Positions 2,394-57,379 of a stretch of 64,000 bases of DNA are shown here, piece after piece (within the stretch, counting starts at the first letter, position 1; every line of letters starts with the position of its first letter). Source of the DNA: a virus. The DNA lies in the UHGV virus genome UHGV-1370948, one strand, 5' to 3'. The notes below the pieces were generated by a model. The model did not search any database and was not told the DNA's origin. It worked only from the letters and a program-made list of their open reading frames with translations. A program made the position numbers and the translations under genes.

Positions 2394-3607
<1,214 letters not shown>

Positions 3608-3732
3608 CATAAACGCCCCTGCCAGAGAGAATATCTGGCTGGCAGGGTTGTTTGCATAGCTATAGCCCGATATTCACACTCTAAGGGCATCACCGTTTCA
3701 TTCTTCGCAGCATAACGACAGCAGGGAGCAGC

Positions 3733-6700
3733 ATGACACAGCAGACCAGAACCATCGCCGAATCCAATAACTTCATCGTGCTGGATAAATACGTTACAGA
3801 ATGGGAAGCCGGTGACCGCTACCAGAGTGAGTCGGAGTTAGAGCGCGAGCTGATTCAGGACTTGCGTAATCAGGGCTATGAGTTTGTGCCTGATTTAACC
3901 TCCCAGTCGGCGATGCTGGCGAATGTCAGGGTGCAACTTCAGACACTGAATCAGGTGGTGTTTAACGAAGGCGAATGGCGACGTTTTACCGAGCAGTATC
4001 TGGATAATCCGAGCGATACGATAGTCGATAAGACCCGTAAAATTCACACCGATTACATCTGTGACTTTACCTTCGATGACGGACGACTGGAAAACATCTA
4101 CCTGATTGACAAGAAAAGCCTTGTCCGTAACAAGGTGCAGGTTATCCAGCAGTTTGAGCAAACCGGCAGCCATGCCAATCGCTATGATGTCACGGTGCTG
4201 GTTAACGGCTTACCTCTGGTGCAAATCGAACTGAAAAAGCGGGGCGTAGCGATTCGGGAAGCCTTCAATCAGATACACCGCTACAGCAAAGAGAGCTTTA
4301 ATACCGAGAACTCCCTGTTCAAATATTTGCAGCTCTTCGTGATTTCAAACGGAACCGATACCCGTTACTTTGCCAATACCACAAAGCGGGATAAAAACAG
4401 CTTTGATTTCACCATGAACTGGGCGCGGTCTGATAACACCCTGATTAAAGACCTTAAAGACTTTACCGCCACCTTCTTCCAGAAACACACCTTACTCAAT
4501 GTTCTGTTCAACTACACCGTGTTTGATGTCAGCAACAATCTGCTGATTATGCGTCCCTACCAGATAGCAGCGACGGAGCGGATTTTGTGGAAAATCAACG
4601 GGGCTTATCAGGCAAAAAAATGGAGCTCCAGAGAGGGGGGCGGCTTTATCTGGCACACCACAGGTAGTGGTAAAACCTTAACCAGCTTTAAAGCCGCAAG
4701 GCTGGCAACTGAACTGGATTTCATTGATAAAGTGTTCTTTGTGGTTGACCGTAAAGACCTTGATTACCAGACTATGAAGGAGTATCAGCGTTTCTCACCT
4801 GACAGCGTTAATGGCTCTGACAGCACCGCAGGGCTGAAGCGTAATCTGGAGAAGAATGACAATAAAATCATTGTCACCACAATCCAGAAACTGAACAACC
4901 TGATGAAAGGTGAAGCCGATTTACCGGTCTATCAGCAACAGGTGGTCTTTATCTTCGATGAGTGTCACCGCAGTCAGTTCGGTGAAGCCCAGAAGAACCT
5001 GAAAAAGAAATTCAAACGTTTCTATCAGTTTGGCTTTACCGGTACACCGATATTTGTCGGTAAAAATGCCTTAGGGGATGAAGACACCGCCAGCGTATTC
5101 GGGGCAGAACTACACTCTTACATCATCACCGATGCTATTCGTGATGAAAAGGTGCTCAAGTTTAAAGTCGATTACAACGACGTTCGCCCGCAGTTCAAAG
5201 AGCTGGAAACGGAAACAGACGAAAAGAAACTCAGCGCCGCCGAGAATAAACACGCTTTGCTGCATCCGATGCGGATTAGCGAAGTCACGCATTACATCCT
5301 GAAGAATTTCCGTCAAAAAACACATCGGGCATTCTCTGGTGCTACAGGCTTCAATGCCATGTTTGCCGTCAGCAGTGTGGATGCAGCCAAAGCCTACTAT
5401 GAAGCGTTCAGAATCATACAGCAGTCGGCTGTTGAACAGGATAAGAACTACAAGCCTCTGAAGGTGGCGACCATCTTCTCCTTTGCCGCCAATGAAGAGC
5501 AGGACGCGGTCGGTGATATCAATGATGAAGGGTTTGATGTCACGGCGATGAACAGCAGTGCGCGGGAGTTTCTGGAATCGGCTATCAGTGACTACAATGC
5601 CATGTTTAAGGTTAACCATAGTACTGATGGCAACAACTTCCAGAACTACTATCGTGACCTCTCTGAGCGCGTCAAAAAGCAGGAAGTAGACCTGCTGATT
5701 GTGGTCGGGATGTTCCTGACCGGATTTGATGCCCCGACACTCAATACCCTGTTTGTGGACAAGAACCTGCGCTACCACGGCCTGATGCAGGCATTCTCCC
5801 GCACTAACCGGATTTATAACGCCACCAAAACCTTCGGGAATATTGTCACCTTCCGTGATTTAGAACAGGCCACAGTGGATGCCATTACCCTGTTCGGGAA
5901 GAGCAATACCCGAAGCGTGGTGATGGAAAAAAGTTATGACGAGTACATGGAAGGCTTCACGGACACGCTTACCGGAGAGGCGCGACGTGGCTTCACAGAT
6001 ATCGTGAGCGAGCTGGAGACGCGTTTCCCGAAACCCGCAGACATTGAGTCCGAAAAAGAGAAAAAAGCCTTCGTTAAGCTGTTCGGGGAATATCTTCGGG
6101 TAGAGAACATACTGCAAAACTACGATGAGTTTACCACGCTGAAAGCGCTGCAAACTGTTGACCTCAGTGACCCGGTAGCCGTGGAGGCGTTTAAAGCCGG
6201 GCACTATCTGGATGATGAGGCTTTCGCTGTGCTCCAGACAGTACGCTTACCCGCTGAGCGTAAAATTCAGGACTATCGCTCCAGCTACAACGATATCCGT
6301 GAGTGGCAGCGCCGTGAGCGTGATGCAAACACCAAAGATAAAAATAGCGTTGACTGGGATGATGTGGTCTTTGAGATTGATTTGCTGAAATCGCAGGAGA
6401 TTAACCTCGATTACATCCTGGGGCTGATTTACGAGCATCATCAAAAGAGTACGGATAAAGAGACGCTGAAAGAGGAAGTGAAGCGCTTAATCCGGGCCAG
6501 TCTGGGGAACCGTGCAAAAGAGGGGCTGATGGTCGATTTTATCGAACAGACGAATCTCGATGCCCTGCCGGGCAAAGAGGGCGTCATTGAAGCCTTCTAT
6601 ACCTTTGCACAACAGGCTCAGCAGCGTGAGGCAGAAGCCTTAATCAAAGAGGAAAACCTGAATGAGGACGCCGCCCGGCGCTACATCAGAAATTCTCTCA

Positions 6701-14012: not shown

Positions 14013-14193
14013 AGGTTGCTTTGGCTCAGCATTGACAGCCTCGGAAAAAAGCGAGATCTGCGCCCGATGTGGTGACAGATCTCGCTGTCATGATGAAGCC
14101 CGTAAAAACATTGAGGCTATGTTTGGGAAGTTTGTCGGATTCCCGATTGACAGCGTTAAAAATAAAAAAAGAACCACGAAGGAAAGCACATGA
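14005..14193 (+). CDS. hypothetical small Cys-rich protein
   Basis: About 62 aa. CARCGDRSRCH motif. Fills the gap between the cobS-like gene and dnaE. Start codon uncertain (TTG 13999, GTG 14002 or ATG 14005). Confidence 0.25.
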   Translation: MNKGCFGSALTASEKSEICARCGDRSRCHDEARKNIEAMFGKFVGFPIDSVKNKKRTTKEST

Positions 14194-16562
14194 AGGCATT
14201 AATGGTACGCACCGATTTTTCTCTTGGTGAATCGGCGCTGAAAGCAAGCCGCGTAGCGAAGGCTGCGAAAGAGTTAGGTTATTCAGCCATTATCAGCGCA
14301 GACACAATGAGTCTGGCTTCAATCATCCCGCTGCAGCAGTCGGCTGGTGATGACCTGGCTGTTATTTGCGGCGTCCGTCTGGTCATTAGTGACAATCCGC
14401 TTTATGAAGGCATGGTCAGAAAAGCCAAAGAGGAAGGTACAGAGATTCCGGTATGCAAGCCTGGTCGTCTGTACAGCTTCACAGCGTTGATAAAGAACGA
14501 TGAAGGGTATAAAGATCTGTGTGAGCTGATGACGTTGGGCAACCGCCGCGAACAGTTTTACTTTTTCCCGCGCATCTCGTTGGAGCAGCTGGCCGAAACG
14601 TATTCAAAGGGCAACATCCTTCTACTGACGTCTGATCGCGATAGCATATTTCATCGGCAGGACTTCGTTAAAATCCTGACTAAATTGCTGGAGGTTGGTG
14701 GGCGTGGCAACTTCTACAGCGTTGTGTATCCGATTGCTACGCCTCTCTACGATCAGTTGAACATGAAGGCGATGAAGGTGGCTAATGCGCTTAAAATCGC
14801 CCCTGTTGCGTTCTATCCAGCTTATTACGAGAAAGAAGAGGACGCAGACCTGCGCGACATTGCGCATATGGTTATCAATAACATCAAAACGGATCAGCCA
14901 TATCGTTTTCACATCCCACACCAGCGCGACAACTCAATCCAGAACCGCAAGCATTTGCTGGTTCGCTTGATGGAATTCTCGAAACGCATGGGTATCGAGG
15001 GTATTAGTTCCGCGATGGTTAACGAGACTCAGGACGAAATCATTGCGGCGTGCAGCTGGCGCTGGCATGAGATGCCGGTCAGTCTGCCAGTTATGGCGGA
15101 AGATGAGGGTGATTCGTTGACGCGAATGGCGGCAGAAGGATTGAAGCGTCGTTTAACAACGCTTGAATTTGGTTGGAAGCCACCAGCAGAGCAGTATCAG
15201 GTTTACATCAACCGTTTACGTTATGAGTTGAGTGTTCTGAAAAAGCTGGGATTTTGCGGCTACTTCCTGATGGTTGAAAATCTACTGTCATGGGCGCGTA
15301 AACAGGATATCCCGGTCGGGCCGGGTCGCGGATCGTCCGCCGGTTCACTTGTTGCGTGGGCGATTGGGATCACCAACATCGACCCGCTACGCCACGGTCT
15401 CCTGTTTGAGCGCTTCATCAACCCTGAACGTCTGGATTTGCCTGACGCGGATCTGGACTTTAGCCAGGCGCTCCGCCCCCGCGTTCTCGAATATCTTGAA
15501 GAGCATTACGGCGAAAAATATGTGGCTGGCATTCCAAACTTCTCTTATCTGGGTATGGCGTCGGCACTACGTGACACGGCACGTATCTACGGCGTGTCTA
15601 CCGAAGATATGGCGGTATCTAAGCAGTTGAAGCAATTCGATGATGAGGGATTATCTCTTGAAGAGACTCGTGAGCAGCTGGGCGCCCTCGACAAATACGC
15701 GAAAGCAAACCCGGAAGCATTCGACGCCGCGTGCAAACTCCAGTCACTGATGCGCAGCTATGGTAAGCACGCCGCGGGTGTCATCGTTTCTGGCGTACCA
15801 CTGACTGAGCGAACACCAGTTGAATTACGCAACGGGGTGCGCTGTATCGCGTTTGACAAGCGTTTCTGTGAATCTATGGGGCTTATCAAGCTGGACGTGT
15901 TAGGGCTGGCTACGCTCGATCTACTGGCTCTCGCTAAACGCTACATCAAAGAGAACGAGGGGATCGACGTTAACCTCGACGCAATCCCTCTCGATGATAA
16001 ACGCGTCCTTGAGGGTATGGCGTTGGGTGAAACAACTGGCGTGTTCCAGTTCGAGTCTGGCGGCATGAGAAACCTGCTTAAAAACCTTGGAAGCGGCATC
16101 AAACCAATGTCGTTTGAAATGGCCGTCGCCACTACCGCGCTATATCGCCCAGGCCCAATGCAGTCCGGCATGATGGATACCTACGTCAGCGTTGCGCGTG
16201 GTTATGAGGACGCTCACTCACTTCACCCAAGCCTTGACGAATTGACCAAAGAAACCAACGGGGTTTTGGTCTATCAGGAACAAATCATGAAAGCGTCGCA
16301 GATCCTCGCCGGCTTCTCTCTGTCGGAAGCAGATATGGTAAGGAAGGCGATTGGTAAAAAAGACATCGAGAAGATGAAAAAGATTGGTGCCGACTTTTCA
16401 GATCGTGCGCAGCTTGGTTGGTTGGAAGTCCAGACTGACGACGGCCAGATTGTCACTGTTCATCGCGCCGCGCTTCATCCGTGCTCTGATGGTAAGAAGC
16501 GCACTGTCGAGCAAGCCATGAAAGAAGATGCCGACATTATTGAATTTGACACCTCTAAGTAA
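14190..16562 (+). CDS. dnaE: DNA polymerase III alpha subunit, N-terminal piece (PHP, palm and part of the fingers domain)
   Basis: 790 aa. PHP domain at the N-terminus. Core motifs GPGRGSSAGSLVAWAIGITNIDPL, LFERFINPER and LYRPGPMQSGMMD match DnaE. Confidence 0.85.
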   Translation: MKALMVRTDFSLGESALKASRVAKAAKELGYSAIISADTMSLASIIPLQQSAGDDLAVICGVRLVISDNPLYEGMVRKAKEEGTEIPVCKPGRLYSFTALIKNDEGYKDLCELMTLGNRREQFYFFPRISLEQLAETYSKGNILLLTSDRDSIFHRQDFVKILTKLLEVGGRGNFYSVVYPIATPLYDQLNMKAMKVANALKIAPVAFYPAYYEKEEDADLRDIAHMVINNIKTDQPYRFHIPHQRDNSIQNRKHLLVRLMEFSKRMGIEGISSAMVNETQDEIIAACSWRWHEMPVSLPVMAEDEGDSLTRMAAEGLKRRLTTLEFGWKPPAEQYQVYINRLRYELSVLKKLGFCGYFLMVENLLSWARKQDIPVGPGRGSSAGSLVAWAIGITNIDPLRHGLLFERFINPERLDLPDADLDFSQALRPRVLEYLEEHYGEKYVAGIPNFSYLGMASALRDTARIYGVSTEDMAVSKQLKQFDDEGLSLEETREQLGALDKYAKANPEAFDAACKLQSLMRSYGKHAAGVIVSGVPLTERTPVELRNGVRCIAFDKRFCESMGLIKLDVLGLATLDLLALAKRYIKENEGIDVNLDAIPLDDKRVLEGMALGETTGVFQFESGGMRNLLKNLGSGIKPMSFEMAVATTALYRPGPMQSGMMDTYVSVARGYEDAHSLHPSLDELTKETNGVLVYQEQIMKASQILAGFSLSEADMVRKAIGKKDIEKMKKIGADFSDRAQLGWLEVQTDDGQIVTVHRAALHPCSDGKKRTVEQAMKEDADIIEFDTSK

Positions 16563-16575
16563 TAAGTAAAATGTG

Positions 16576-16615
16576 AAAACAAGTTGTTTTTTAGTTTCTG
16601 AAAACAACTTGTTTA
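16576..16615 (+). promoter_or_regulatory. two tandem copies of the AAACAAnTTGTTT palindrome in the 70-nt gap that splits dnaE
   Basis: aaaacaagttgtttt at 16576-16590 and aaaacaacttgttta at 16601-16615. Preceded by taataagtaa stop codons. Followed by the consensus RBS. Confidence 0.5.
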
Positions 16616-16632
16616 ATGACAAAGGAAAACAC

Positions 16633-17793
16633 ATGAAGATTACTAAAATCATCTCAGAGAAGCCCGGACTCAGCGAATCAAAAGCAAAAGAGGTCTGGGA
16701 TGCTTTCGAGAAATTCGGGTCGTATGGCTTTAACAAATCACACGCCGTGGCCTATACCGCAATCAGCTACCAGGCAATGTATCTGAAGACTCACCATCCG
16801 GCTGCATTCTTCGCCGCCGCACTGACAATTCAGGATGATGAAAAACACCGAGCTGTTGTAAAGGATGCACTGGCACGCGGCGTTATTGTGATGCCGCCAG
16901 ACATCAATCTCTCAACTGACCGCATCGAAATAGTCGAACTGAAGGATGGCCGGGCGGCGCTATATGCCCCCTTCTCAGCTGTCAAAGGTTGTTCTGAAAA
17001 AGGCAGCTTAGCCATTATGCGTGCTCGCGAGCGTGTAGGTGGTAAGTTTGAGTCGCGAGCACAATTCAAGGAAGCGATAGAGGCCAGACTTTGCAATATC
17101 CGAGTTCAGGAGGCTCTGGAAGCCGTTGGTGCATTTGCCAGTATTGAGCCTGGCAGCGAACCGGCGATGGCAGAATCCCGCCGCAAGGCTCAATCAGAGC
17201 TGATGGGAAGCCTCATTATCGATGCGGTAAAAGTGAGTCGCCCGTTCGAGATGAATCCGAAACGCCAGGCAGAAGTGTCGATGTTGATGGAAGAGCTGCG
17301 TAAAGAGGTCGGGGTGGGCGAAGATCTGGTTACTCCGCATATCGGCGTATCGCCAAAAATAATGATTATCCTCGACACAGCAAACGGCAACGATATCAGG
17401 ACGGGGATCTTCATGGAGAACGGCTACGAAGATTTTAAGGCGAAAATGCTCGTTAATGGCGATCTGCGCATGAGCGAGGTGTACGTTACCGGCGTCATTA
17501 AGCAAGATAAGAAGTTGCCACTGTCCCGCGACGCAGAGAACACCTACATCGAGTTTATGAAGAAAGAGCTTGAGCTGGTTAAACCAACCTACGTCCTGAC
17601 GTGTGGTCGCCTATCGGCCAGTCTCTTCAACGACAAAACCAAGGCAACGGATTTGGTCGGACGTAAGGAATACTTTGGCGCAATGGACTTGACCGTGTTT
17701 TACGGATTCAATCCGGGCATACTTCACTTCAGACCGGAAGAAGGTGAGAAATTGGAACTTATTATGGAAGACATTAAGGAAGCATTGTCATGA
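16633..17793 (+). CDS. dnaE: DNA polymerase III alpha subunit, C-terminal piece
   Basis: Starts at the consensus aaaggaaaacac-ATG. SYGFNKSHAVAYTAISYQAMYLKTHHPAAFFAA aligns with DnaE residues around 750-790. About 387 aa from this start. Confidence 0.8.
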   Translation: MKITKIISEKPGLSESKAKEVWDAFEKFGSYGFNKSHAVAYTAISYQAMYLKTHHPAAFFAAALTIQDDEKHRAVVKDALARGVIVMPPDINLSTDRIEIVELKDGRAALYAPFSAVKGCSEKGSLAIMRARERVGGKFESRAQFKEAIEARLCNIRVQEALEAVGAFASIEPGSEPAMAESRRKAQSELMGSLIIDAVKVSRPFEMNPKRQAEVSMLMEELRKEVGVGEDLVTPHIGVSPKIMIILDTANGNDIRTGIFMENGYEDFKAKMLVNGDLRMSEVYVTGVIKQDKKLPLSRDAENTYIEFMKKELELVKPTYVLTCGRLSASLFNDKTKATDLVGRKEYFGAMDLTVFYGFNPGILHFRPEEGEKLELIMEDIKEALS

Positions 17794-19923: not shown

Positions 19924-19950
19924 AAGGCGTCTTCGGACGCCTTATTTATT
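19924..19950 (+). terminator. rho-independent terminator
   Basis: aaggcgtc-ttcg-gacgcctt followed by atttatt. Confidence 0.55.
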
Positions 19951-45539: not shown

Positions 45540-46034
45540 ATGATTAATTACCTCTCCGATCTTCTTCGAAATAAGCGGTTTGAGCGAAATGTCATCTCAA
45601 ATCTAAACTTCCTCGAAAGTCGTATCCAAAACCTCAATGAGCGAATCCGAGTGCTTGAAAGCACCGTAGTGTCACAAGCCAACACGATCACCTCTCTCAC
45701 GAAGAGCAGTGATTCGACGCCGCGCCCCGACCCGTTCCCTGATAAAAACTTTGCCCATGGAAAATTACCAAAGAAAAAGACTACAGCCGCTGGCGCTTCT
45801 GGTTATCGGGCTGACTCTGTCACCTCTCGGCATCGCGCCAGTTACGCAGATGATGCAGCCGGCGCTCAGCAATTCACGGAAAACAGAAGCCAAGTCCACG
45901 AGGACAGCGCATCTGTCTCCAGACATCACGGCTCATCCCACCACCACGACTCCAGTTCCTGCTACAGCAGCCACGGGGACGTTGGAGGGTATGACTCTGG
46001 ATGCTCCGATTCGTCGTCCGGGTCTTTTGACTGA
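45540..46034 (+). CDS. hypothetical protein (coiled-coil N-terminus, Ser/His-rich disordered C-terminus)
   Basis: 164 aa ORF. Its own upstream AAACAAATTGTTTA motif lies downstream, ahead of the next gene. Confidence 0.4.
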   Translation: MINYLSDLLRNKRFERNVISNLNFLESRIQNLNERIRVLESTVVSQANTITSLTKSSDSTPRPDPFPDKNFAHGKLPKKKTTAAGASGYRADSVTSRHRASYADDAAGAQQFTENRSQVHEDSASVSRHHGSSHHHDSSSCYSSHGDVGGYDSGCSDSSSGSFD

Positions 46035-46102
46035 GTCATTAGCCTGATATTTAAACCTAAAAAACAAATTGTTTAACAGCATAAGAAAACAAAGGAAATC
46101 AC

Positions 46103-46528
46103 ATGTTTGGTATGTTTAAAAAGAAAGTCCGCAAAGCAGCCGTTGAAGTTAAGAAAATGGAGAACCGCGATGCTGTAGAAGCAACCGTATGGGGCGCTTA
46201 TGCGATCGCCTATGCGGATGGCTCATGCGACGCGAAAGAGATCAGCGTTCTGGAAAAAACCATCTCCGCTCTGCCCTCTTTCTCCCCGTTTGCTGGCGAG
46301 ATTGCCCAGATGAGCGCCAATATTCGCTCTCGCTACGAAGCATCCCCTCGCTCCGCAAACGCTGAAGCCATGCGCCAGCTGGCCGACGTTGCCGGTACAA
46401 CCGATGCGGTCGACGTTTTATGTCTGTGCCTGGATATCGCTGATAACGACGGCATCGATGAGAAAGAAGAGGTGATGCTGAAGAAGATCGCTCAGGCGTT
46501 GCAGTTGTCGCTGGATCAGTATCTGTGA
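46103..46528 (+). CDS. TerB-like domain protein (putative)
   Basis: 141 aa. WGAYAIAYADGSCDAKEISVLEKTIS ... DGIDEKEEVMLKKIAQAL pattern typical of TerB / DjlA-N domains. Confidence 0.45.
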   Translation: MFGMFKKKVRKAAVEVKKMENRDAVEATVWGAYAIAYADGSCDAKEISVLEKTISALPSFSPFAGEIAQMSANIRSRYEASPRSANAEAMRQLADVAGTTDAVDVLCLCLDIADNDGIDEKEEVMLKKIAQALQLSLDQYL

Positions 46529-46683
46529 TGGCTCGCGTCAGCATTGCGCTGGCGCTGCTGGTTTTGTCTGTGCTGGTGGATTTCACCAGCCGGATTCTGT
46601 CAGTGGCCGCGGACGGTGTTTTGGTCATAACAGGCATAACTCTATTACTGCCTGCTCTGATTAAAGGTGCCAAGACAAAGTAA
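46528..46683 (+). CDS. small membrane protein (51 aa)
   Basis: Hand translation MARVSIALALLVLSVLVDFTSRILSVAADGVLVITGITLLLPALIKGAKTK. ATG overlaps the TerB-like stop. Followed by a strong terminator. Confidence 0.35.
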   Translation: MARVSIALALLVLSVLVDFTSRILSVAADGVLVITGITLLLPALIKGAKTK

Positions 46684-46703
46684 GGAGCTTCGGCTCCTTT
46701 TTT
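46684..46703 (+). terminator. rho-independent terminator
   Basis: ggagc-ttcg-gctcc followed by a T6 tract. Confidence 0.65.
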
Positions 46704-46781
46704 ATCGAACTGTGAAATTTCCGTAGTTTGTTTTTTCGCCCTGCTCTGCTGAGCGAGAATGTACGCTTCAATTATTAAAGA

Positions 46782-47468
46782 GTGAAAACGTTGGAAGACT
46801 TAACTCCTGCAGAACCTAAATCCATGAAGTCAGTTGGATATATTTACGTCATTGAAGATGTTCAAAGAGGGCTAGTAAAGATTGGGAAGAGCGTCGATCC
46901 AGTCGCCCGGATATCCAATATTGTCAACATCAGCGGAATTACCAAGATAAAACAATTCATATCACACCGTATCGCTGGCTATAGCCAGGTAGAGCATCGA
47001 ATGCATGTCATCTTTACAGACCATCGGGTACGAGGTGAATGGTTTCGCTGTGACTTCGAGGAGGCTAAATCAGCCCTGATTTCTATCCTCCCCGCAGAGA
47101 TAACCGAAGAGGAGGTTGTCGAGACGAGAAAGCGAGACATGGAGCGTTCCGCATCGGCCTTAGAGACTATGCGTGAAAAGTTTTCAGGCTCATCAACCGA
47201 TATACGGCGAACTCCAATGGACTGGACGCTCGAATTTTTGTCGTCAGCCCATCAATTCGTTTTAGCTCAGCAAAAGCTTTATGGCGATGTGAGAGCGCTG
47301 GGCCGGCTTGGGGTCGTTTACGAGGGCTATCTCGAGTTATTTGCGGCCCTAGAGGACTGCATCTCAATCGCGCAAGAGATAAACGAGGAAGAGGCTATAG
47401 CAAGTCTCACGAAATACGAAAGAGCCTGCTTTATAGATAAAGCGCGCAAAGCTGCTGAGTATATCTAA
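46782..47468 (+). CDS. T5orf172 / GIY-YIG-like domain protein
   Basis: GYIYVIEDVQRGLVKIGKSVDPVARI...EWFRCDFEEA matches the T5orf172 (MUG113) GIY-YIG-like domain. Helical C-terminal domain of about 110 aa. Start is GTG 46782 or ATG 46824. Confidence 0.55.
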   Translation: MKTLEDLTPAEPKSMKSVGYIYVIEDVQRGLVKIGKSVDPVARISNIVNISGITKIKQFISHRIAGYSQVEHRMHVIFTDHRVRGEWFRCDFEEAKSALISILPAEITEEEVVETRKRDMERSASALETMREKFSGSSTDIRRTPMDWTLEFLSSAHQFVLAQQKLYGDVRALGRLGVVYEGYLELFAALEDCISIAQEINEEEAIASLTKYERACFIDKARKAAEYI

Positions 47469-47560
47469 GCCTAATTAAACATGGACTGGCGCCTTTAGAG
47501 TCAGTTCATAATTAATCACATCAGAAAACAACTTGTTATCAAAACAAAAAAGGAAAACAC

Positions 47561-47995
47561 ATGTGCATTCGCTGTGAAGAACGTAAAGCCAAAAAAGAAG
47601 AAGTCCTGAGCCGTGCCAACGAAATCGCTGATATTGCCACCTTAGCTACTGGAGAAATCAACAACATTCCCGATGCGCTGCGGATGACAGCTCGTCTTGA
47701 GGCATTGGGTAGCGAAGGGCTGCTTGAACCTGCGAACTTGTTCCTCCTGATCGCCCACTTTGCCAGCCAGAACAAAGAGCTGGAGGCTCACAACAAGCGA
47801 CTTCATGAGACTCTGAATTATATGACGATGAGCGAAAAAGCTGCGCCGGCGGACGGTAATAAAATGTCGAATGAAGAGGCTCTGCGTATCGTCGAAACGG
47901 TCGTGAATACCTTTGAGCTGGCCCAGGCACGAGCAATGGAAGGTGCGAATGCTCAGATCCGGGAGCTGAAGAATCGCTTTGGGATTAATAAGTAA
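47561..47995 (+). CDS. hypothetical coiled-coil protein
   Basis: 144 aa. Consensus RBS and upstream AACAACTTGTTA motif. Confidence 0.5.
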   Translation: MCIRCEERKAKKEEVLSRANEIADIATLATGEINNIPDALRMTARLEALGSEGLLEPANLFLLIAHFASQNKELEAHNKRLHETLNYMTMSEKAAPADGNKMSNEEALRIVETVVNTFELAQARAMEGANAQIRELKNRFGINK

Positions 47996-48000
47996 AGCCA

Positions 48001-48030
48001 AGGCGCAGCTGTTCCGCTGCGCCTTTTCTG
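48001..48030 (+). terminator. rho-independent terminator
   Basis: aggcgcagc-tgttcc-gctgcgcct (perfect 9-bp stem) followed by tttctg. Confidence 0.55.
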
Positions 48031-48039
48031 GAGCATTCT

Positions 48040-48357
48040 ATGAAAATACCGATCATTCTTTTAGCCGTTGCGTTGGCCGGCTGTAGCACTCGACCTGTTA
48101 ACACAATCAAGTTCCCGGATCGCGCGTATCAATACGGTGTCTATGGCACTGTTCATGTGCAATACGACGTCAACAAAGACGGCCGCATAGAAAATATCGT
48201 GGTCAACGGCGACGGCGACGGCTTTTTTACAAAGCAGATCGTCAATGACATGAAGCATTGGCGGCTTGAGAAAGGCCATCCGATGAAAGCCCAGAAGCTT
48301 ACCGTAGCTTTCGAAAGAGATCGTGTTCGAGCTAAAGGTGGATTCCTTGAAAATTAA
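48040..48357 (+). CDS. lipoprotein with a TonB C-terminal-like domain
   Basis: Lipobox LAGC in MKIPIILLAVALAGCST. Body KFPDRAYQYGVYGTVHVQYDVNKDGRIENIVV...W resembles the TonB-C fold consensus. Confidence 0.5.
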   Translation: MKIPIILLAVALAGCSTRPVNTIKFPDRAYQYGVYGTVHVQYDVNKDGRIENIVVNGDGDGFFTKQIVNDMKHWRLEKGHPMKAQKLTVAFERDRVRAKGGFLEN

Positions 48358-48405
48358 ACTTCCCGGTCGTCACGGCGGCTGGCTATTAGTGGCGGAGACC
48401 CGAAA

Positions 48406-48945
48406 ATGATTAATGGAAATGTAATTCGTCAGGCAAATGACGGCGGCAATACCTGGATAGATTGCTCAGAAGAAGCCTTCAAACGAGCGAAAGAAAACGG
48501 TACGCCGGTGCGAGAAGTCCATTTGAATGACGAATCCTTCCGTGCGGCATTTGATGTCTGGCAGGATAAGACGGATTGGGTTCAGAAAGACCGGCGTTTT
48601 AATGTGTTAAAGCCTTGGGGGTGGCATCGTGCCGATGTGCTGAAGGCATTTATTGAGCATCTGGAAGAAAGCAACGCTCAGGTCATCCAGTCACGCGACC
48701 ACTACAAGCGCATGGCCGAGGAATCGCTGAAATGCGCAGCAGGTTGCCAGGTGGAAGTGGTTTCTGCGCCAGGTGGAGAGCGAGTGATTAAAGAGCCTAT
48801 GGCGAAACTACCGCCTCACATTTATCGTGAGCTGGTTTCTGAACTGACGCAGACCGCAAAGAAGCACTGCGGAACCGGTTCAATGAGAGAGGCACTGAGT
48901 TACGTGCTTTCTCGCTACGTAGAACCGGATCACTCGAAGAAATGA
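48406..48945 (+). CDS. hypothetical protein
   Basis: 179 aa ORF. Confidence 0.5.
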   Translation: MINGNVIRQANDGGNTWIDCSEEAFKRAKENGTPVREVHLNDESFRAAFDVWQDKTDWVQKDRRFNVLKPWGWHRADVLKAFIEHLEESNAQVIQSRDHYKRMAEESLKCAAGCQVEVVSAPGGERVIKEPMAKLPPHIYRELVSELTQTAKKHCGTGSMREALSYVLSRYVEPDHSKK

Positions 48946-48948
48946 ATA

Positions 48949-48970
48949 AGGGGCAAAAGCCCCTTTTTGT
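48949..48970. terminator. bidirectional rho-independent terminator between convergent genes
   Basis: aggggc-aaaa-gcccct, with a T-tract on one side and an A-tract on the other. Confidence 0.6.
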
Positions 48971-49620
48971 TAATACCCCTGGAAGTAGGCATAGGGGATT
49001 TTTAACCCCCCTCTTCCGCCAAATGATTGTGAGAAGTTTTTTTGATATTTTGACGTATACTTCACCTGGATTTCAGAGCCAGTCCATTTAATGAGAAGAC
49101 CAGAATAACCTGTCGATTCACCATCGTCAGAAATATTGCCAGGCACCATGTTCATCAAAATCCACGGATTGAAGCCCGGAGAGAAAGACACTATCTGACT
49201 ATCGACCGGCGAGTTTGCTGGTAGATCGATAAAGCCCCTGACGCGAGGCACACGACTGGCGCTTTTTGCACTCCATATCAGATCGCCGTTACCATTCATC
49301 ACATCAAGATATCCGCTCTCAACGCCAAGGTTTCGAGTTGTCCTGATGATTTGCCCGCTTCCGTTCTGAAAGCTAAAGGCGCCAGGCATGGCGAAGGCAC
49401 CGGCATTTAAACGAAACCAGTATAGGTAGCCTGGTACTGGCGTGTCTGCTGGTTTTAGAAAACCAAATGGGTATGACCCCCCGAACGGGTTGTCGATTTT
49501 GTAGTACCCGTTATCTGTCAGCCCGTCGATGTTTCTGATGTCAGAAAAGAGCGTTGTCTTGTTGTCTGAGTCTATTTGCAGCGCACCTGCGTCGTTATAG
49601 ACCTCAAATCCGTAACTCAT
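48970..49620 (-). CDS. hypothetical Gly/Asn/Ser-rich beta protein
   Basis: 216 aa. N-terminus MSYGFEVYNDAGALQID is paralogous to the upstream neighbour. Confidence 0.5.
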   Translation of the reverse strand: MSYGFEVYNDAGALQIDSDNKTTLFSDIRNIDGLTDNGYYKIDNPFGGSYPFGFLKPADTPVPGYLYWFRLNAGAFAMPGAFSFQNGSGQIIRTTRNLGVESGYLDVMNGNGDLIWSAKSASRVPRVRGFIDLPANSPVDSQIVSFSPGFNPWILMNMVPGNISDDGESTGYSGLLIKWTGSEIQVKYTSKYQKNFSQSFGGRGGLKIPYAYFQGY

Positions 49621-49629
49621 ATCTTATCC

Positions 49630-49926
49630 CTAAGCATATCGATATACTTCTACTGTGAAAGTCTGGGACGTGCCGTATCCAGACAGCGTAAATAAGGTAA
49701 ATGCATTGTCGCTTACTGCGCAAAAAGCCTCGTTAAAGGCGCTTCCATAAGAACCGGCAACAATCACAGCGTAGGCGTTGCTGGCGTTGATACCCGAAAC
49801 GCCTTGAGTAACTGAATTGCCACCGCCTGTTCCCACATTGTAAGTCCCTATGTACCTGCAGTTATAATCACTGGTATCGACAACAAGGTTCCCATTTTCG
49901 TCCCAGCATTGAAGCCCGAATCCCAT
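49630..49926 (-). CDS. hypothetical Gly-rich protein, N-terminal paralog of the downstream gene
   Basis: 98 aa. N-terminus MGFGLQCWDENGNLVVD. Confidence 0.5.
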   Translation of the reverse strand: MGFGLQCWDENGNLVVDTSDYNCRYIGTYNVGTGGGNSVTQGVSGINASNAYAVIVAGSYGSAFNEAFCAVSDNAFTLFTLSGYGTSQTFTVEVYRYA

Positions 49927-50018
49927 AGCTAAATCCTTTGCAATGACCCGGTTTCAGTTCCTAAATTTTACAACCTAATAAAATAACCAAACAACTTGTT
50001 TTCTGCCTTTTTATACGT

Positions 50019-50318
50019 GTGATAATAAGTGAAACAAGAAAACAATTGGGCCAAGACATGATTTTCAGACAGCGTCACTATCTCTTTATCCGCGAGCACT
50101 ACAAACACGACCGCTTCGAGGGGCGCAACGATGCCACTTGGGGGCGCGACTACTCTTATCGCGTGGCCCAGAGCGGTCTGGACTCACTAGCGAAGTATGG
50201 CTACAGCCTCATCTCGCAGCATGAATCGAAAACTGGCGAAGCAGTGTATTACGATCGCAACCTGAATATCCTGACCGGCGACCAGATTAAGGTCGCTCTC
50301 AGAGGGGAACTGGTATGA
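50019..50318 (+). CDS. hypothetical protein, translationally coupled to the downstream HD hydrolase
   Basis: 99 aa. ATGA overlap with the next gene. Confidence 0.45.
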   Translation: MIISETRKQLGQDMIFRQRHYLFIREHYKHDRFEGRNDATWGRDYSYRVAQSGLDSLAKYGYSLISQHESKTGEAVYYDRNLNILTGDQIKVALRGELV

Positions 50319-50953
50319 ATATTATCGACAAGGCGCACATGTTTGCAGCCGGCGCCCATGCTGGCGTAGGTCAAAAGCGGAAGTATACCGGCGAGGACTA
50401 CATTCACCACCCGGTTGCCGTTGCGGAGATTGTGCGGAATCACGGTGGCACTGATGAAATGGTTGCGGCGGCGATGCTGCATGACACCATTGAAGATACT
50501 CAGGTGACGTTCGGCCACATCTTCAGTCTGTTTGGGGACCGCGTCGCCGAGATGGTCGATGCGATCAGCAATAAAGCACTGCCTGAAGACGGAAATCGCG
50601 AGACGCGCTTCTTCATTAACGTGAAAGCCCTGCGTGAGCGTCTGGACATGCAGAGCCGCGTCATTAAGTTGGCTGACCTGATTCATAACACTCAGTCTAT
50701 CACCAGGCACGACCAGGAATTTGCAGCGCAGTACCTTGCTGAAAAGGCTTTTAAGCTGCGTGTGCTGTTCACCGACGCTGAGATTGGTGTGTCGGGCGAA
50801 GAGATAGAGTCCAGAACCGGCGACCACCCTCTTTTGATTGAAGCGGAGAAGATGGTTGCCACGGCGCTTTCTCAGCTTCCCGACGAGCTATTCCTCAAAT
50901 CAGATCGAATTAATGCCGAACTGATGGAGAAGTGGGAAAAGACGGAAGCCTGA
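50315..50953 (+). CDS. HD-domain (p)ppGpp hydrolase-like protein (SpoT/Mesh1-type small alarmone hydrolase)
   Basis: HHPVAVAEIV...AAAMLHDTIEDT...LFGDRVAEMVDAIS...KLADLIHN aligns motif by motif with the SpoT hydrolase domain. Confidence 0.75.
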   Translation: MNIIDKAHMFAAGAHAGVGQKRKYTGEDYIHHPVAVAEIVRNHGGTDEMVAAAMLHDTIEDTQVTFGHIFSLFGDRVAEMVDAISNKALPEDGNRETRFFINVKALRERLDMQSRVIKLADLIHNTQSITRHDQEFAAQYLAEKAFKLRVLFTDAEIGVSGEEIESRTGDHPLLIEAEKMVATALSQLPDELFLKSDRINAELMEKWEKTEA

Positions 50954-50966
50954 CACTATCAACCGA

Positions 50967-50990
50967 AGACCGCCGTCGCGGTCTTTTCTT
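50967..50990 (+). terminator. rho-independent terminator
   Basis: agaccgc-cgtc-gcggtct followed by tttctt. Confidence 0.5.
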
Positions 50991-51073
50991 AATGCCTTAA
51001 ACAATTTGTTTTTTGCCTTATCTGGTGTGAAATAATATCAACAATAAGAAAACAAATTGTTTAGGAGTTAACT

Positions 51074-52738
51074 ATGTCGACCGCCATTTCAATCATCAAC
51101 AACACAGCTGGCGCCGTGGATTTCCGCAAGGAAATGAACGTCATTCATGACATCGTGGCGGAGTGCGAAAGCGAGATCGCCTTGATGAATCAGGTGCATG
51201 ATTTCGTTTATTCCGGCTCGCGCGTGTCGATGATCAACCGCCTGCAGGAATTGAGCCGCAGACCGAACGATGAGAATCTCCGCAGCGTGCCGAAGTTGAG
51301 CGCAGTTGATTTGGATTTCGTAAAGCAAAACATCTGGGCGGAATACTGGCGCAAGGTTACTGATATGACCGGTGCTCTTCTCATCATGCCAGCTGAGCGC
51401 CGCGACCAGTGGCGTGCCCAGTTCACGCTAGGCGTCCAGAAGACCGTTAAAAAAGATTTTGGCGGATTTGAGCGCCGCGTTGACGAGTTCGTTGGCGTGC
51501 CAGAGTTCACGGCCGAAACAGTTATCCCGACGATGACCTCGCTACTGAATGACCGTCATAAGTATCTGGCTGAGCGCGTATATGGCTTGTTCAAGGCACT
51601 GAGTCCTACGCACAAAACCAACAAAACATACGGCTTCAGTGAAAAGTTGATCATCGCGAACTGCATTACCGATTTCTGGAACCGGAGCGTCTCGGTTAAT
51701 TACCACAAGTCGGACATCATCGACGACCTGCGCGTACTACTGCACTTCTTTGCGCACAAAGAGTTTATCACCATCAATCCCTGCGCCGAGGCACTGTCAG
51801 CCGCATACAGAACGCATAACTGTGAAACCGGTGAATGGATGAACATCGACGGTAACTTACTGCGCGTGAAGATTTTCAAAAACGGTAACGCCCATTTTGA
51901 GATCCACCCCGACGTCGCCTGGAAGCTTAACGAGGTACTGGCACACAGTATGCCTGCAGCTATCCCGGCACCATGTCGAAAGGCACCAACAACAAAGGCG
52001 CCAAAAGAGTTCGGTTACATCCAGAAGACCGTATCTGAAAGAACCAGAGGTGTTATTCGCGATCGCCGCCATAGTAAAGACAATACGTGGTACTTCCCGG
52101 ACTCGTCACTGCAAAAGGCTCAAATAGAAGACCTTGAGCGCACGCTGAGATTTATCGGTGGCGTGAAGGAGCGAGGCAGTTGGCTGTTCCCGTATGAGCC
52201 AACCGCAACATTCGACAGCATCGTGTCCATGGGCCTCATTCCAGAGGTTAAGTCACACCAGTTCTACCCAACACCGGCATCCATTGCTCAGTACGTCGCG
52301 CAGATCCTGAAATGCACGCCAACTGACCGAGTGCTGGAACCATCCGCGGGTCGTGGTGATTTGCTGGCATTCCTCAATGCGACGCCGGAGAACGTGACCT
52401 GCGTGGAAATATCGCCACTGTTTTGTGACATCCTGTCTGCAAAGGGGTACGACGTTCATAACAAAGACTTTATCGACTGGTCGAAGCAGCTGCCTTATGA
52501 CTACGACAAGATCGCAATCAACCCACCGTATTCAGAAGGTCGAGCAAAAGAGCACACGCTCACGGCACTAAATCATCTCAGCGAAGATGGGATGATGGCG
52601 GCAGTCCTGCCAGCCGGGTACAAGCCGGAAGAATGGATAGGCAATCAGTTCGTATGTGCTAAATCAGGCCGAGAGTTCTCAGGTGAGTTTGAGGACACCG
52701 GCATCACAGTCGCAGTATTCGTTTTCAAAAGAGCATAG
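51074..52738 (+). CDS. N6-adenine DNA methyltransferase (gamma-class C-terminal domain) fused to an unknown 350-aa N-terminal domain
   Basis: C-terminal FYPTP...VLEPSAGRGDLL (motif I) followed by INPPYS (motif IV). N-terminal 350 aa not recognisable. Confidence 0.65.
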   Translation: MSTAISIINNTAGAVDFRKEMNVIHDIVAECESEIALMNQVHDFVYSGSRVSMINRLQELSRRPNDENLRSVPKLSAVDLDFVKQNIWAEYWRKVTDMTGALLIMPAERRDQWRAQFTLGVQKTVKKDFGGFERRVDEFVGVPEFTAETVIPTMTSLLNDRHKYLAERVYGLFKALSPTHKTNKTYGFSEKLIIANCITDFWNRSVSVNYHKSDIIDDLRVLLHFFAHKEFITINPCAEALSAAYRTHNCETGEWMNIDGNLLRVKIFKNGNAHFEIHPDVAWKLNEVLAHSMPAAIPAPCRKAPTTKAPKEFGYIQKTVSERTRGVIRDRRHSKDNTWYFPDSSLQKAQIEDLERTLRFIGGVKERGSWLFPYEPTATFDSIVSMGLIPEVKSHQFYPTPASIAQYVAQILKCTPTDRVLEPSAGRGDLLAFLNATPENVTCVEISPLFCDILSAKGYDVHNKDFIDWSKQLPYDYDKIAINPPYSEGRAKEHTLTALNHLSEDGMMAAVLPAGYKPEEWIGNQFVCAKSGREFSGEFEDTGITVAVFVFKRA

Positions 52739-52746
52739 AGGCGCAG

Positions 52747-52926
52747 ATGATTGAGTTAACGCTGAAGGAGTACAACGCCATCCACACAGACTATCGGGGC
52801 GTATGGTCAACGGAGCGAACCGACTGGCCCGATTGGGAAAGCGTGAGAGAGAAATTCATGGGCAAACGAACCATGATGAAGCACGGTGGTCTGTTGATTG
52901 AAGATCTTCACTTTCGTATTGTTTAG
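52747..52926 (+). CDS. hypothetical small protein (59 aa)
   Basis: Hand-translated ORF MIELTLKEYNAIHTDYRGVW.... Start overlaps the MTase stop region. Confidence 0.25.
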   Translation: MIELTLKEYNAIHTDYRGVWSTERTDWPDWESVREKFMGKRTMMKHGGLLIEDLHFRIV

Positions 52927-52967
52927 AATGAAACGGCTTGTAAAAAATCCACTAATCAGAGATTGAA

Positions 52968-53579
52968 ATGAAAATTAAAAACATTGGCATCGTTGCAATA
53001 CTTTTTCTGGCTTCAGGTTGTAATGATGTAGCCGTTAAACCATATGAAATGGTGCTCAACAAAACACCATCTCAGGTGGATATGGCAGGTTATACGATGG
53101 TTGATCAGGACGGGGAGGCAACGGACAAACCAATCAAAGCCAAGGATCGTTTTTCTCAGTATCTATACGCACCATCAGAATACGTAGGCAAAGCCCTCAA
53201 GGAAGAGAAAGACGCAGATTTAGTCATCTTTGGCACATTAGACGGGAAAATTGCGTTCTCCATCGTCAATGTGAGTGTGAATGAGATGAAGACGGTGCAG
53301 GATGTGCTGAAGAGTAAATATGGCCCAGCTCAGGCGACTCGCGCTGGCGTGAGAGATCAAGCCGCTTTCGAGTCAAGTCCAGGCTTCTGCAAAGCGTACA
53401 ATCCAGAAGCAGGGTTAGAACAGAACCACTGCCCTATGGACTATTACGAAATTTACGGCAATGTAGATGAGGCATATATGCTGGTTAAGACTAAGAGCAT
53501 CTACGCTAACGGCCCTGAGAAGTTGACAGTGGTAGGAATAACCAGAGACGCAAAAAACTACGAGGACAGCGTTAAGTAA
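52968..53579 (+). CDS. hypothetical lipoprotein
   Basis: MKIKNIGIVAILFLASGCND lipobox. Confidence 0.5.
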   Translation: MKIKNIGIVAILFLASGCNDVAVKPYEMVLNKTPSQVDMAGYTMVDQDGEATDKPIKAKDRFSQYLYAPSEYVGKALKEEKDADLVIFGTLDGKIAFSIVNVSVNEMKTVQDVLKSKYGPAQATRAGVRDQAAFESSPGFCKAYNPEAGLEQNHCPMDYYEIYGNVDEAYMLVKTKSIYANGPEKLTVVGITRDAKNYEDSVK

Positions 53580-53652
53580 TCACCTTAAACAATTTGTTTT
53601 CTACCTTTTCTGGTTTGTGATAATAACGTCAACCAGAAAAGGAGAACCCAAC

Positions 53653-53880
53653 ATGACCCCTTCCAACACATACCTGACAGTCAGCTTGACCCACCCAGAA
53701 AAAGTAACCTCAGAGAACCTCGCTGAACTTTACCGTGACTGGATGAACAACTACCTTTCCGTCTCCGCGTTCGCAGAGGATTACGGCATCACAGTGCCAC
53801 AGGCGGAGATGACCATCGCAAAAGGTCGCATGGTTCACGAAGCAGCCGCCGAGTGGTTGAAAGAGTTCAACAAAGCCTAA
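53653..53880 (+). CDS. hypothetical protein
   Basis: AAGGAG RBS 7 nt upstream of the ATG. About 75 aa. A promoter motif lies at 53587. Confidence 0.4.
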   Translation: MTPSNTYLTVSLTHPEKVTSENLAELYRDWMNNYLSVSAFAEDYGITVPQAEMTIAKGRMVHEAAAEWLKEFNKA

Positions 53881-53950
53881 AACAACTTGTTTTCTGCCTA
53901 TAGCAAGTTCAGATAATAAAACCATTAAGAAAACAACAAAGAGAAAACAC

Positions 53951-54271
53951 ATGAGCCTGAATATCACTGAGTCATATAAAGTCGCCGTTATCAGCACCGC
54001 CCATGTCACCCAGGCTGATTCCGAGATACTGCCTCAAATCTCCTTCGACCCGATTACTGATCGCGGCCACAACTGGATTCACGGCACTGAGTATGGCTGG
54101 ATTGTTCGTGCCGGGCTTCATGCTGAGGCATGGAAGGAGTCTTTACGTGAAGCGGGGATCAGCTGGTCGGCGATCGAGAACATCGAGAAAGTCTTGGGCG
54201 CTGGTTTTGAGGTCGTGCATTTTGACTGCGACGCAGATACGATTGACGGCTTGCAAGTTTGGGATTGGTAA
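53951..54271 (+). CDS. hypothetical protein
   Basis: 106 aa. Consensus RBS agagaaaacac-ATG. Confidence 0.45.
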   Translation: MSLNITESYKVAVISTAHVTQADSEILPQISFDPITDRGHNWIHGTEYGWIVRAGLHAEAWKESLREAGISWSAIENIEKVLGAGFEVVHFDCDADTIDGLQVWDW

Positions 54272-54273
54272 CT

Positions 54274-54450
54274 ATGCCTGAAGATGTAGTGAATGACTGT
54301 CTGGTCGAACTGGACAGAGAGATTACCCCGGAGATCATCGCCAAGATTGTACAGATGCTGCCGTCCGACATAACCCACCTCGCTGAAGAGTGGGGGTGGA
54401 ACGACACTGAGGTTGGGGATAAGGTTTACACGTTCATCAAGTCGCACTAA
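54274..54450 (+). CDS. hypothetical small protein
   Basis: About 58 aa in the ORF-track frame starting at an internal ATG. Confidence 0.3.
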   Translation: MPEDVVNDCLVELDREITPEIIAKIVQMLPSDITHLAEEWGWNDTEVGDKVYTFIKSH

Positions 54451-54461
54451 TGGAGATAGTA

Positions 54462-54773
54462 ATGAAGAAAGTAGGCATTCTCGTTTTAGCACTTATGGCA
54501 AGTTTCGGTGCTTCAGCTAAACCTCTTACGGAAGCCGGTTTGAAAAAACATGCTGAGAACGTTTGTGGAATGAGAGATACATTGGATCTAAAAGTACCTT
54601 TCGATAACAAAGCTCCAACTGAGCCATTGAACACTGTAAACCGTGGTGTTGTTCATGCTGCCAGAGATGCTGCTCAAGTAAACAAAAAGGTCATTAACGG
54701 GAGTCTTTCTGACTGCCAGGACATCGTTGCAAAGCAATACAGTTCTGACGAGAAAAAATACGCCGCTGATTGA
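54462..54773 (+). CDS. hypothetical secreted protein
   Basis: GGAGAT RBS. Signal peptide MKKVGILVLALMASFGASA. Confidence 0.45.
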   Translation: MKKVGILVLALMASFGASAKPLTEAGLKKHAENVCGMRDTLDLKVPFDNKAPTEPLNTVNRGVVHAARDAAQVNKKVINGSLSDCQDIVAKQYSSDEKKYAAD

Positions 54774-55689: not shown

Positions 55690-55763
55690 TTTGGGAAGAT
55701 ACCCAGAACAGTTTGGGAACAGGAAAGGGACAGTTTGGGAAGGTCATTTACCGTTTTGGGAAG
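55690..55763. repeat. four direct repeats TTTGGGAAG/C with 21-23-bp phasing
   Basis: Direct read. Copies at 55690, 55713, 55734 and 55755. Confidence 0.7.
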
Positions 55764-55940
55764 GTAGCGTTAAGGGAGTTCTGGGGTATTGGGATTAAGG
55801 CGTTATAGAGGGAAGAGGTTTGGGCGTTTAGGCGTTTGTGTAAGTAGGGTCAGAAAAAAAGTCGCGCTTCCGTTTTCGTAGAAATTCAAGCTGTGATTTT
55901 CCAGCCCTGCAAAAACGTTGGCGCCGTCCAGTCACCCTAC

Positions 55941-56027
55941 GGTCAGAAAACGGGTCGGTAGCCTTTTAGCCGCGGTAAAACGGGGAACGGCCAGATACAG
56001 CCTACGGTCGGGAAACGGGGAGGTTGC
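55941..56027. repeat. three roughly 22-nt direct repeats GGTCAGAAAACGGGTCGGTAGCC / CGGTAAAACGGGGAACGGCC / GGTCGGGAAACGGGGAGGTTGCC at about 32-bp spacing
   Basis: Direct read. A fourth, degenerate copy lies at about 56150 (ctgtcagaaaatcgacgggtgtc). Confidence 0.6.
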
Positions 56028-56856: not shown

Positions 56857-56861
56857 GACAT

Positions 56862-57348: not shown

Positions 57349-57379
57349 TCATGTGCTTAGTAGTCGCAGAATTGTCTAC

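Follow-up and report, generated by a model that had tools for sequence, protein, structure and literature searches.

A family-C DNA polymerase gene in two pieces in an SSU5-like Klebsiella phage-plasmid: probable fracture by a homing endonuclease that is no longer present

In the virus genome UHGV-1370948, of which a stretch of 64,000 nucleotides (nt; hereafter the window) was analyzed, the gene for a DnaE-type (family-C) replicative DNA polymerase is present as two adjacent open reading frames (ORFs) that keep their original order and orientation, lie 70 nt apart, and have a stop and a start of their own. The window belongs to a ~115-kb SSU5-like Klebsiella phage-plasmid. Over its 3.6-kb polymerase region it matches plasmid pKqq_SB1124_3 (115.6 kb, from Klebsiella quasipneumoniae) at 100% identity and 28 further Klebsiella plasmids (~110 kb, non-mobilizable) at 80-99%, and its assignment as an SSU5-like phage-plasmid follows from its closest phages, which are SSU5-like (~66% protein identity), together with the genes adjoining the polymerase pair, which encode CobT/CobS-like ATPases, a gp32-like single-stranded DNA-binding protein (SSB) and an exonuclease.

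The first ORF (dnaE-N or ORF1; 14190..16562, plus strand) encodes 790 amino acids (aa) that comprise the PHP domain, the palm/NTPase, most of the fingers domain and most of an insertion module that is described below. Its Pfam matches are PHP at residues 6-151 (PF02811), DNA_pol3_alpha at 309-572 (PF07733) and DNA_pol3_finger at 575-740 (PF17657), the last of which reaches profile positions 1-162 of 166. The second ORF (dnaE-C or ORF2; 16633..17793, plus strand), whose reading frame is +1 relative to ORF1, encodes 386 aa that supply the module's last strand and the remainder of the fingers domain with its FNKSH motif, followed by an HhH domain and a domain resembling uracil-DNA glycosylase (UDG). 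These coordinates and the sequence of both ORFs and the gap, read directly, are as they were reported in an earlier note on this DNA, which was made from the letters alone. ORF1 and ORF2 are two parts of one polymerase: PHROG 405, a phage DNA polymerase profile of 1190 positions, is covered over 47-773 by ORF1 and over 766-1172 by ORF2, so the two abut within one protein family. Furthermore, the PHP, palm (Pol III alpha NTPase), fingers and HhH set of a family-C alpha subunit is present across the pair, and Foldseek returned matches to Pol III alpha structures with E about 1e-17. A match to the Rfam family isrJ within ORF1 (15143-15207, minus strand) was sub-threshold (29.4 bits vs a gathering score of 37, E 0.013) and was taken as chance.

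In ORF2 the HhH domain (HHH_6, PF14579; residues 83-172, 16879..17148, plus strand, Pfam E 1.4e-12) lies ahead of a family-4 UDG-like domain (17245..17790, approximate boundaries, plus strand) that was found by Foldseek comparison with the PDB, where it matched the family-4 UDG 4zbx with a template modeling (TM) score of 0.80 and E 7e-10. The Pfam UDG match is below the cut-off in the ORF2 of the window, yet it is recorded for relatives. The earlier note had expected an OB fold and clamp- and tau-binding regions in this C-terminal subunit. No OB fold match (PF01336) was found in ORF2 with Pfam, and it is the UDG-like domain that stands in place of the C-terminal OB and tau-binding domains of cellular DnaE. 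Enterobacterial members of this domain are without the cysteine cluster of distant homologs (CDKCNLC in P0029, CEDCSL in P0037), and the canonical GE.PG motif is seen in none of the UDG-like domains, enterobacterial or distant; judged by these absent motifs, the domain may not be a working glycosylase. Stand-alone homologs of ORF2 are 385-417 aa long and conserve an MKI.K(I/V) start at identities as low as 31%.

Where exactly is the polymerase broken? The end of ORF1, which the earlier note took to be a 45-aa tail foreign to DnaE, is instead ~47 residues (about 744-790; 16419..16559, plus strand) of a lineage-specific module that occurs also in the fused polymerases of the phages SSU5 and Cyrano. 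These residues, four short beta-strands and a helix, make up the larger part of a 55-60-residue insertion in the fingers domain, located between the helix ending ...FSDRAQ and the helix leading to the FNKSH motif. In the alignment the insertion is common to the whole SSU5-like group, fused or split, and is lacking from Rhizobium phage RHEph10 and Pseudomonas phage nickie. Split relatives as far away as Acinetobacter keep the motif GW..(V/L)..EDG...VH....C.DG..RT..EA....ADI(I/V).F in the tail. In Pfam the module gave only noise at E up to 10, and neither a Pfam family nor an intein was matched. An AlphaFold model of a fragment from a fused relative, P0006 (mean predicted local distance difference test score, pLDDT, 87.8), shows four short strands and a helix, with a longer strand, DYVEIVSE (158-165), at the end. 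When ORF1 residues 567-790 were joined to ORF2 and modeled (mean pLDDT 88.6), ORF2 residues 3-10 (ITKIISEK; 16639..16662, plus strand) formed a beta-strand (227-234 of the joined model) that corresponds to this last strand, and the last ~8 residues of ORF1 were mostly coil of lower confidence. According to the two models, the break falls just where the last strand of this lineage-specific surface module begins. The module as modeled is thus a beta-module inside the fingers domain and is mostly older than the break, since the fused relatives have the "tail" too; split forms are only ~6-10 residues longer than fused ones. The models also suggest that the N-terminal strand of ORF2 might act as a strand-donation clasp. 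The earlier note had correctly located the restart of ORF2 ahead of the FNKSH motif, whereas the distance to YGFNKSHA is ~29 residues rather than 25.

The intercistronic gap (16563..16632, plus strand, 70 nt), which is the spot where relatives hold a homing endonuclease gene, holds several short signals. A stop cluster, TAATAAGTAA (16560..16569, plus strand), has two stops in the frame of ORF1 and one in that of ORF2 and is kept in Klebsiella oxytoca. It is followed by two copies of an operator-like motif of the element, palindrome 1, AAAACAAGTTGTTTT (16576..16590, unstranded), and palindrome 2, AAAACAACTTGTTTA (16601..16615, unstranded), which could pair with one another as a possible 15-bp RNA hairpin, and then by the initiation region of ORF2, AAAGGAAAACAC-ATG (16621..16635, plus strand), which is the consensus of the element. 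As the earlier note held, these are recurrent modules of the element. The palindrome has 26 strand-matches in the window (about 15 sites) vs 0.39 expected, and the initiation 15-mer AAAGGAAAACACATG has seven exact copies, and 16 at up to two mismatches, vs 0.15 expected, always at plus-strand gene starts (16 of them, e.g., 12750, 16621, 18917, 21191, 23461, 34349 and 47549). With a consensus start of its own, ORF2 is predicted to be separately translated, in line with the same note. The stops, both palindromes and the ribosome-binding site are constant in the gaps of the window, K. oxytoca and Klebsiella variicola; the spacers vary.

Is this an accident of sequencing or a dying gene? That relatives with a fused gene exist could be taken as a sign of an assembly or sequencing artefact or of a recently inactivated pseudogene, and the earlier note had named single-ORF relatives as just such a sign. 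Additionally, the RefSeq-derived tables (NZ_CP084809.1, our locus L020, and other records of the clade) carry no coding sequence (CDS) for either half, the locus tags RS27550 and RS27555 being skipped in NZ_CP084809; the RefSeq pipeline probably marks the halves as pseudogenes. GenBank submitters named the halves "DNA polymerase III subunit alpha" and "uracil-DNA glycosylase." Single-ORF relatives are indeed found, but the split is no artefact and no recent pseudogene, an explanation so improbable that it needs little further consideration. There are 29 independent complete plasmids, including the window type, that are colinear over exactly 3604 nt with identical gap length (80-100% nt identity). 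The same pair of ORFs, with unchanged coordinates, is found in a K. oxytoca plasmid (81% nt identity), and in a K. variicola relative (86% aa identity) the two are 67 nt apart. This also bears out the view of the earlier note that a simple frameshift error does not account for the split. The ratio of non-synonymous to synonymous substitution rates (dN/dS) between the window and K. oxytoca is 0.036 for ORF1, 0.076 for the tail and 0.023 for ORF2, values to be read with dS saturated at about 1.6-2.2. Moreover, a cluster of 247 member sequences contains ORF2 as an intact protein of 386 aa. Judged from these sequence comparisons, both halves are intact and under strong purifying selection, and a two-subunit polymerase, as the earlier note proposed, is a reasonable reading. 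In the K. oxytoca plasmid, pCAV1752-111, two transposase genes lie a short way downstream of the polymerase genes (L001 7111-8231); the counterpart place in the window is without them.

Could the halves nevertheless be joined during or after translation, by split-intein trans-splicing, by frameshifting or by ribosomal bypass between a take-off AAG at 16557 and a landing AAG at 16636? Metagenomes have yielded endonuclease-fractured dnaE genes that carry split inteins (PMC2677866), and for bypass there are the matched AAG codons, a stop right after the take-off codon, the hairpin and a Shine-Dalgarno-like sequence ahead of the landing site. We give such joining next to no chance. The extra residues number ~58 in total and Hint-type halves need about 130 or more. 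A Pfam search relaxed to E of 10 gave neither a Hint nor an intein match, the N-junction is without a Cys/Ser and the C-junction without an HN-C/S/T motif, and fused relatives still have the extra sequence. The earlier note, too, had set aside a split intein. A simple frameshift cannot join the ORFs because there are stops in both relevant frames, the take-off/landing match does not hold in K. variicola (AAC vs AAA, with an AAA/ATT landing context), and the conserved consensus start accounts for ORF2 without any recoding. Since no intein is present, the polymerase would have to work as two chains. Similarly, a group I or group II intron in the gap was rejected: an Rfam search of the gap at E up to 1 gave no family, and 70 nt is too short.

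The composition of the gap might also be thought to reveal its origin, namely the insertion, by the element, of a cassette assembled from its regulatory modules so as to put the C-terminal part under separate control. The palindromes and ribosome-binding site are kept in three diverged lineages in which the spacer varies, the same palindrome lies near promoters and 5' untranslated regions (UTRs) elsewhere in the window, and among the 18 loci examined it occurs in the gap only in the split-and-empty clade to which the window belongs. Other copies of AAACAA(N)TTGTTT lie at 46062, 47526, 49989, 50999, 51050, 53587, 53880, 54903, 55436, 56947 and 58079 (within 46000-58200) and at 23440, sites that resemble the regulon of one dimeric phage-plasmid regulator. 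They occur in two contexts: class A, "ccttAAACAA.TTGTTTtctgcc" with a TGnGATAAT-like extended -10 element ~19-20 nt on, and class B, "(a)gaAAACAA.TTGTTT" 8-25 nt ahead of a ribosome-binding site. The class A sites are not called by a consensus promoter scan, so their status as promoters comes from reading the sequence. Both gap copies are in class B, a 5'-UTR-type context, and the label of "promoter palindromes" that the earlier note gave them does not fit. Neither is followed by a -10 element at workable spacing or a TGnGATAAT-like element, and a sigma-70 scan of 16300-16800 called no promoter, a scan that also misses the putative class A promoters elsewhere. The two palindromes can form a hairpin of 12-15 bp in three lineages (z-scores -3.2, -4.1 and -5.8), an automatic consequence of having two copies of one palindrome. 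No terminator was found by a scan of the gap, which lies in a tight plus-strand gene array from about 7.6 to 22 kb whose first convincing terminator comes after the SSB gene, at 19924-19943. Insertion of a regulatory cassette is therefore quite improbable as the origin of the split: the gap lacks a -10 element or consensus promoter, the supposed target of the control (an OB fold and tau-binding domain) was wrong, and such an insertion does not account for the endonuclease that relatives have at this very codon position, between identical junction residues. The evidence for it is compatible with later co-option of the gap rather than with its origin.

The same junction in relatives bears on how the gene was broken. 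The gene is a single uninterrupted ORF in SSU5 (1172 aa), Cyrano (1168 aa), RHEph10 and nickie. In other relatives the halves are separated by a gene, most often for a NUMOD4-HNH endonuclease: one of 231 aa in a Klebsiella/Enterobacter type (loci L008 and L014), of 190 aa in Acinetobacter brisouii (L009) and of 238 aa in L017, whose ORF2 homolog is 44% identical, and in L018 (ORF2 homolog 31% identical) a 235-aa endonuclease of the L008 family (35% identity). The NUMOD4-HNH proteins of L008, L009, L017 and L018 are 30-41% identical pairwise. A different endonuclease, HTH-NUMOD3-HNH, lies between the halves in L010 (ORF2 homolog 37% identical), and three unrelated small ORFs do so in L012 (ORF2 homolog 51% identical); the latter (2613-3986; 172, 95 and 184 aa) have no Pfam match and no similarity to endonucleases. 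In two further relatives the endonuclease has decayed. An Acinetobacter baumannii plasmid (L013) has a 63-codon remnant in which residues 1-23 are joined out of frame to 148-186 with the HNH core deleted, and L016 (ORF2 homolog 55% identical) has a 72-aa in-frame remnant made of the N-terminal 19 aa and the C-terminal 45 aa. In all nine of these loci ORF1 ends in ...ADI(I/V).F plus 0-4 residues, and the junction features ...ADI(I/V).F-stop and MKI.K(I/V) are common to all split forms. Other selfish elements are seen in the same replication module of two of these relatives: in L009 (1-3352; 8517-9254) the N-terminal part of dnaE is in further pieces, with a faint Hint hit, and recA has an intein, and in L016 (1-732) the gene for a CobS-like ATPase has a LAGLIDADG domain.

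A census of plasmids by tblastn of junction peptides against PLSDB recovered the same states. Fused genes, matched as one piece spanning 561-573 nt, were found in Escherichia coli, Salmonella, Yersinia pestis (pMT1), Klebsiella, Enterobacter and Citrobacter. Occupied junctions are represented by about 240 records in an identity band in which nine of nine sampled records have a span of 1307 nt and a NUMOD4-HNH annotation, and by further Acinetobacter plasmids on top of these. A gene both split and empty was found only in the 29-record clade of the window. Isolated phages provided both the fused and the occupied states, and a protein search with the end of ORF1 returned short fragments only. Comparison of the locus among relatives, which the earlier note had recommended, thus confirmed that the split is conserved in the clade and in addition revealed what that note had missed, that the junction is an insertion site of a homing endonuclease. 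We conclude that the window probably carries an endonuclease-fractured ("genes in pieces") polymerase gene whose endonuclease is no longer present.

Several observations weigh against this conclusion. In the gap of the window there is nothing recognizable of an endonuclease gene (tblastn against the window, with five endonucleases and the three L012 gap ORFs as queries, gave only E > 0.9), so the loss is deduced from relatives and not seen. The gap contents of L012 and L010 mean that the gap may simply tolerate insertions. In a neighbor-joining tree of 757 ungapped columns of the polymerase, in which the root among the outgroups is not resolved, the topology (L012, ((window, K. oxytoca), (SSU5, (Cyrano, L008)))) has 98-100% bootstrap at these nodes, with L009 and L010 forming a second clade; the fused SSU5 and Cyrano are hence nested within a clade of split forms, which implies either repeated site-specific invasions, as expected for homing, or re-fusions. 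Lastly, no fossil ribosome-binding site was found before the internal Met of the fused SSU5 gene.

The absence of a remnant in the window, and gap contents that differ by lineage (two HNH families and three unrelated ORFs), would also suit a history in which an unrelated intercistronic insertion split the gene first, endonucleases and other genes later colonized the gap, and the clade of the window was never occupied. The same ambiguity is acknowledged for the T4-like gp43 genes of phages 44RR and 25 (PMC2988022). We consider this history rather unlikely for three reasons. One endonuclease family is found at the site across polymerases that are ~40% identical, with comparable divergence of the endonucleases themselves. 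The passage from occupied to empty is documented by two decay intermediates that arose independently. Additionally, the 3' segment of the gap in the window, TAATGAC..GGAAAACAC-ATG, is similar to the spacer that in L008/L014 separates the stop of the endonuclease from the start of ORF2, a likeness that extends over the ~20 nt before the ATG (TAATGACAAAGGAAAACAC in the window, TAATGACGGGAAAAACAC in L008/L014). Across the junction the window is 62% identical to occupied forms vs 55% to fused ones, while overall it is equidistant (69%). It is this closeness to occupied forms at the junction, together with the two decay intermediates, that makes loss of the endonuclease the likelier course for the clade, and we infer that the clade probably lost it, as read from its relatives rather than from the gap itself. 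When the fused Cyrano and the endonuclease-split L008 were compared for a co-conversion tract, identity dipped at the junction to 0.68 and 0.48 vs about 0.80, a dip that overlaps the less constrained module.

How, then, would such a gene have been made and how would it work? The end of the module in the SSU5-like fingers domain would be the home site of a free-standing NUMOD4-HNH homing endonuclease, whose cassette would end the upstream frame and supply the downstream part with a ribosome-binding site and an ATG (the MKI.K start). In the Klebsiella clade the endonuclease gene would then have been lost, leaving a gap of 67-70 nt with stops, two operator-like palindromes and a consensus ribosome-binding site. 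The halves are most likely co-transcribed, as they lie in one plus-strand array with no terminator between them, and ORF2 would be translated separately from its consensus start. The two chains would assemble without covalent joining: the first helices of ORF2 would complete the fingers domain and contact the ORF1 half, and ORF2 residues 3-10 would be donated as the last strand of the module built by the ORF1 tail. As for the palindromes, they are probably either bound by the regulator that would act at the other ~13 sites or folded into a hairpin in the mRNA, and either could tune the output of ORF2.

Genes of a similar kind have been described. In marine metagenomes, three dnaE loci are among the "fractured genes" (Dassa et al. 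2009, PMC2677866) in which order and locus are kept and a free-standing endonuclease lies between the pieces. In the model proposed for them, the cassette gives an upstream stop and a downstream Met, the endonuclease may be lost while the fracture is kept, and a hairpin sits upstream of the C-terminal part after that loss (PMC2677866). With no endonuclease in the window and an endonuclease present or decayed at the same junction in relatives, the window matches the post-loss stage of this model. The metagenomic loci differ in that split inteins are expected to re-ligate their protein, whereas none is present here, and in their insertion points in dnaE. Of the cases studied by experiment, the nearest to this one are the polymerase of two Aeromonas phages and, further below, the Aeh1 reductase. 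The T4-related Aeromonas phages 25 and 44RR likewise have a replicative polymerase as two adjacent cistrons; their split gp43 products (43A/43B) co-purify and are active, and a seg endonuclease lies between the parts in one relative and only an untranslated spacer in the other (Petrov, Ratnayaka and Karam 2010, via PMC2988022). Family B and a GIY-YIG endonuclease are involved there, in contrast to family C and NUMOD4-HNH here; moreover, the present case concerns temperate phage-plasmids of Enterobacterales and Acinetobacter and offers the whole series of fused, occupied, decayed and empty states.

Other genes in pieces resemble this one in part. In phage Aeh1 (nrdA-a/mobE/nrdA-b) an HNH insertion splits an essential replication-related gene between adjacent beta-strands and both polypeptides have short terminal extensions at the break (PMC3045599). 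The Aeh1 ribonucleotide reductase is functional as separate polypeptides, and its tails were proven essential (PMC3045599). In Aeh1, however, the endonuclease has been retained and the tails came with its insertion, whereas here most of the "tail" predates the break and only ~6-10 residues are extra. T4 genes 39/60 with mobA are a further case, in which an HNH insertion divided a gene that related phages have in one piece (PMC2988022). T4 gene 60 differs in its 50-nt translational bypass; the bypass codon match at the present locus is not kept among relatives. Cyanobacterial DnaE-N/DnaE-C also make a family-C catalytic subunit from two genes, but from separate loci and with a naturally split intein that is trans-spliced at a different site, whereas the genes here are adjacent and unspliced. 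In the literature on SSU5 and phage-plasmids with a homing endonuclease and polymerase, no description of this locus was found.

Has the empty fracture itself been favored by selection? If the target site is kept disrupted, the clade might be immune to the endonuclease-bearing SSU5-like elements that co-circulate in Klebsiella, and the gap might have been co-opted as a control point at which the master regulator or the hairpin sets the amount of the C-terminal subunit. We put this forward as a speculation that is unlikely to be correct. If it were true, polymerase activity could switch between plasmid maintenance and lytic replication.

The polymerase locus of these elements is a clear further example of a known process, the fracture of genes by endonucleases. 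What it adds is a compact natural series of the life cycle of a homing endonuclease in an essential gene, un-invaded, occupied, twice independently decayed, and empty but fractured. The series comes from phage-plasmids that occur commonly in clinical Klebsiella, E. coli, Salmonella, Yersinia and Acinetobacter. A practical consequence is that the replication module of these plasmids is misread, because the halves are apparently dropped as pseudogenes or ORF2 is named for a uracil-DNA glycosylase. The series also indicates that a family-C replicative polymerase can probably tolerate a break inside its fingers domain without the help of an intein, and the strand-donation clasp by which it may do so could serve the engineering of split polymerases.

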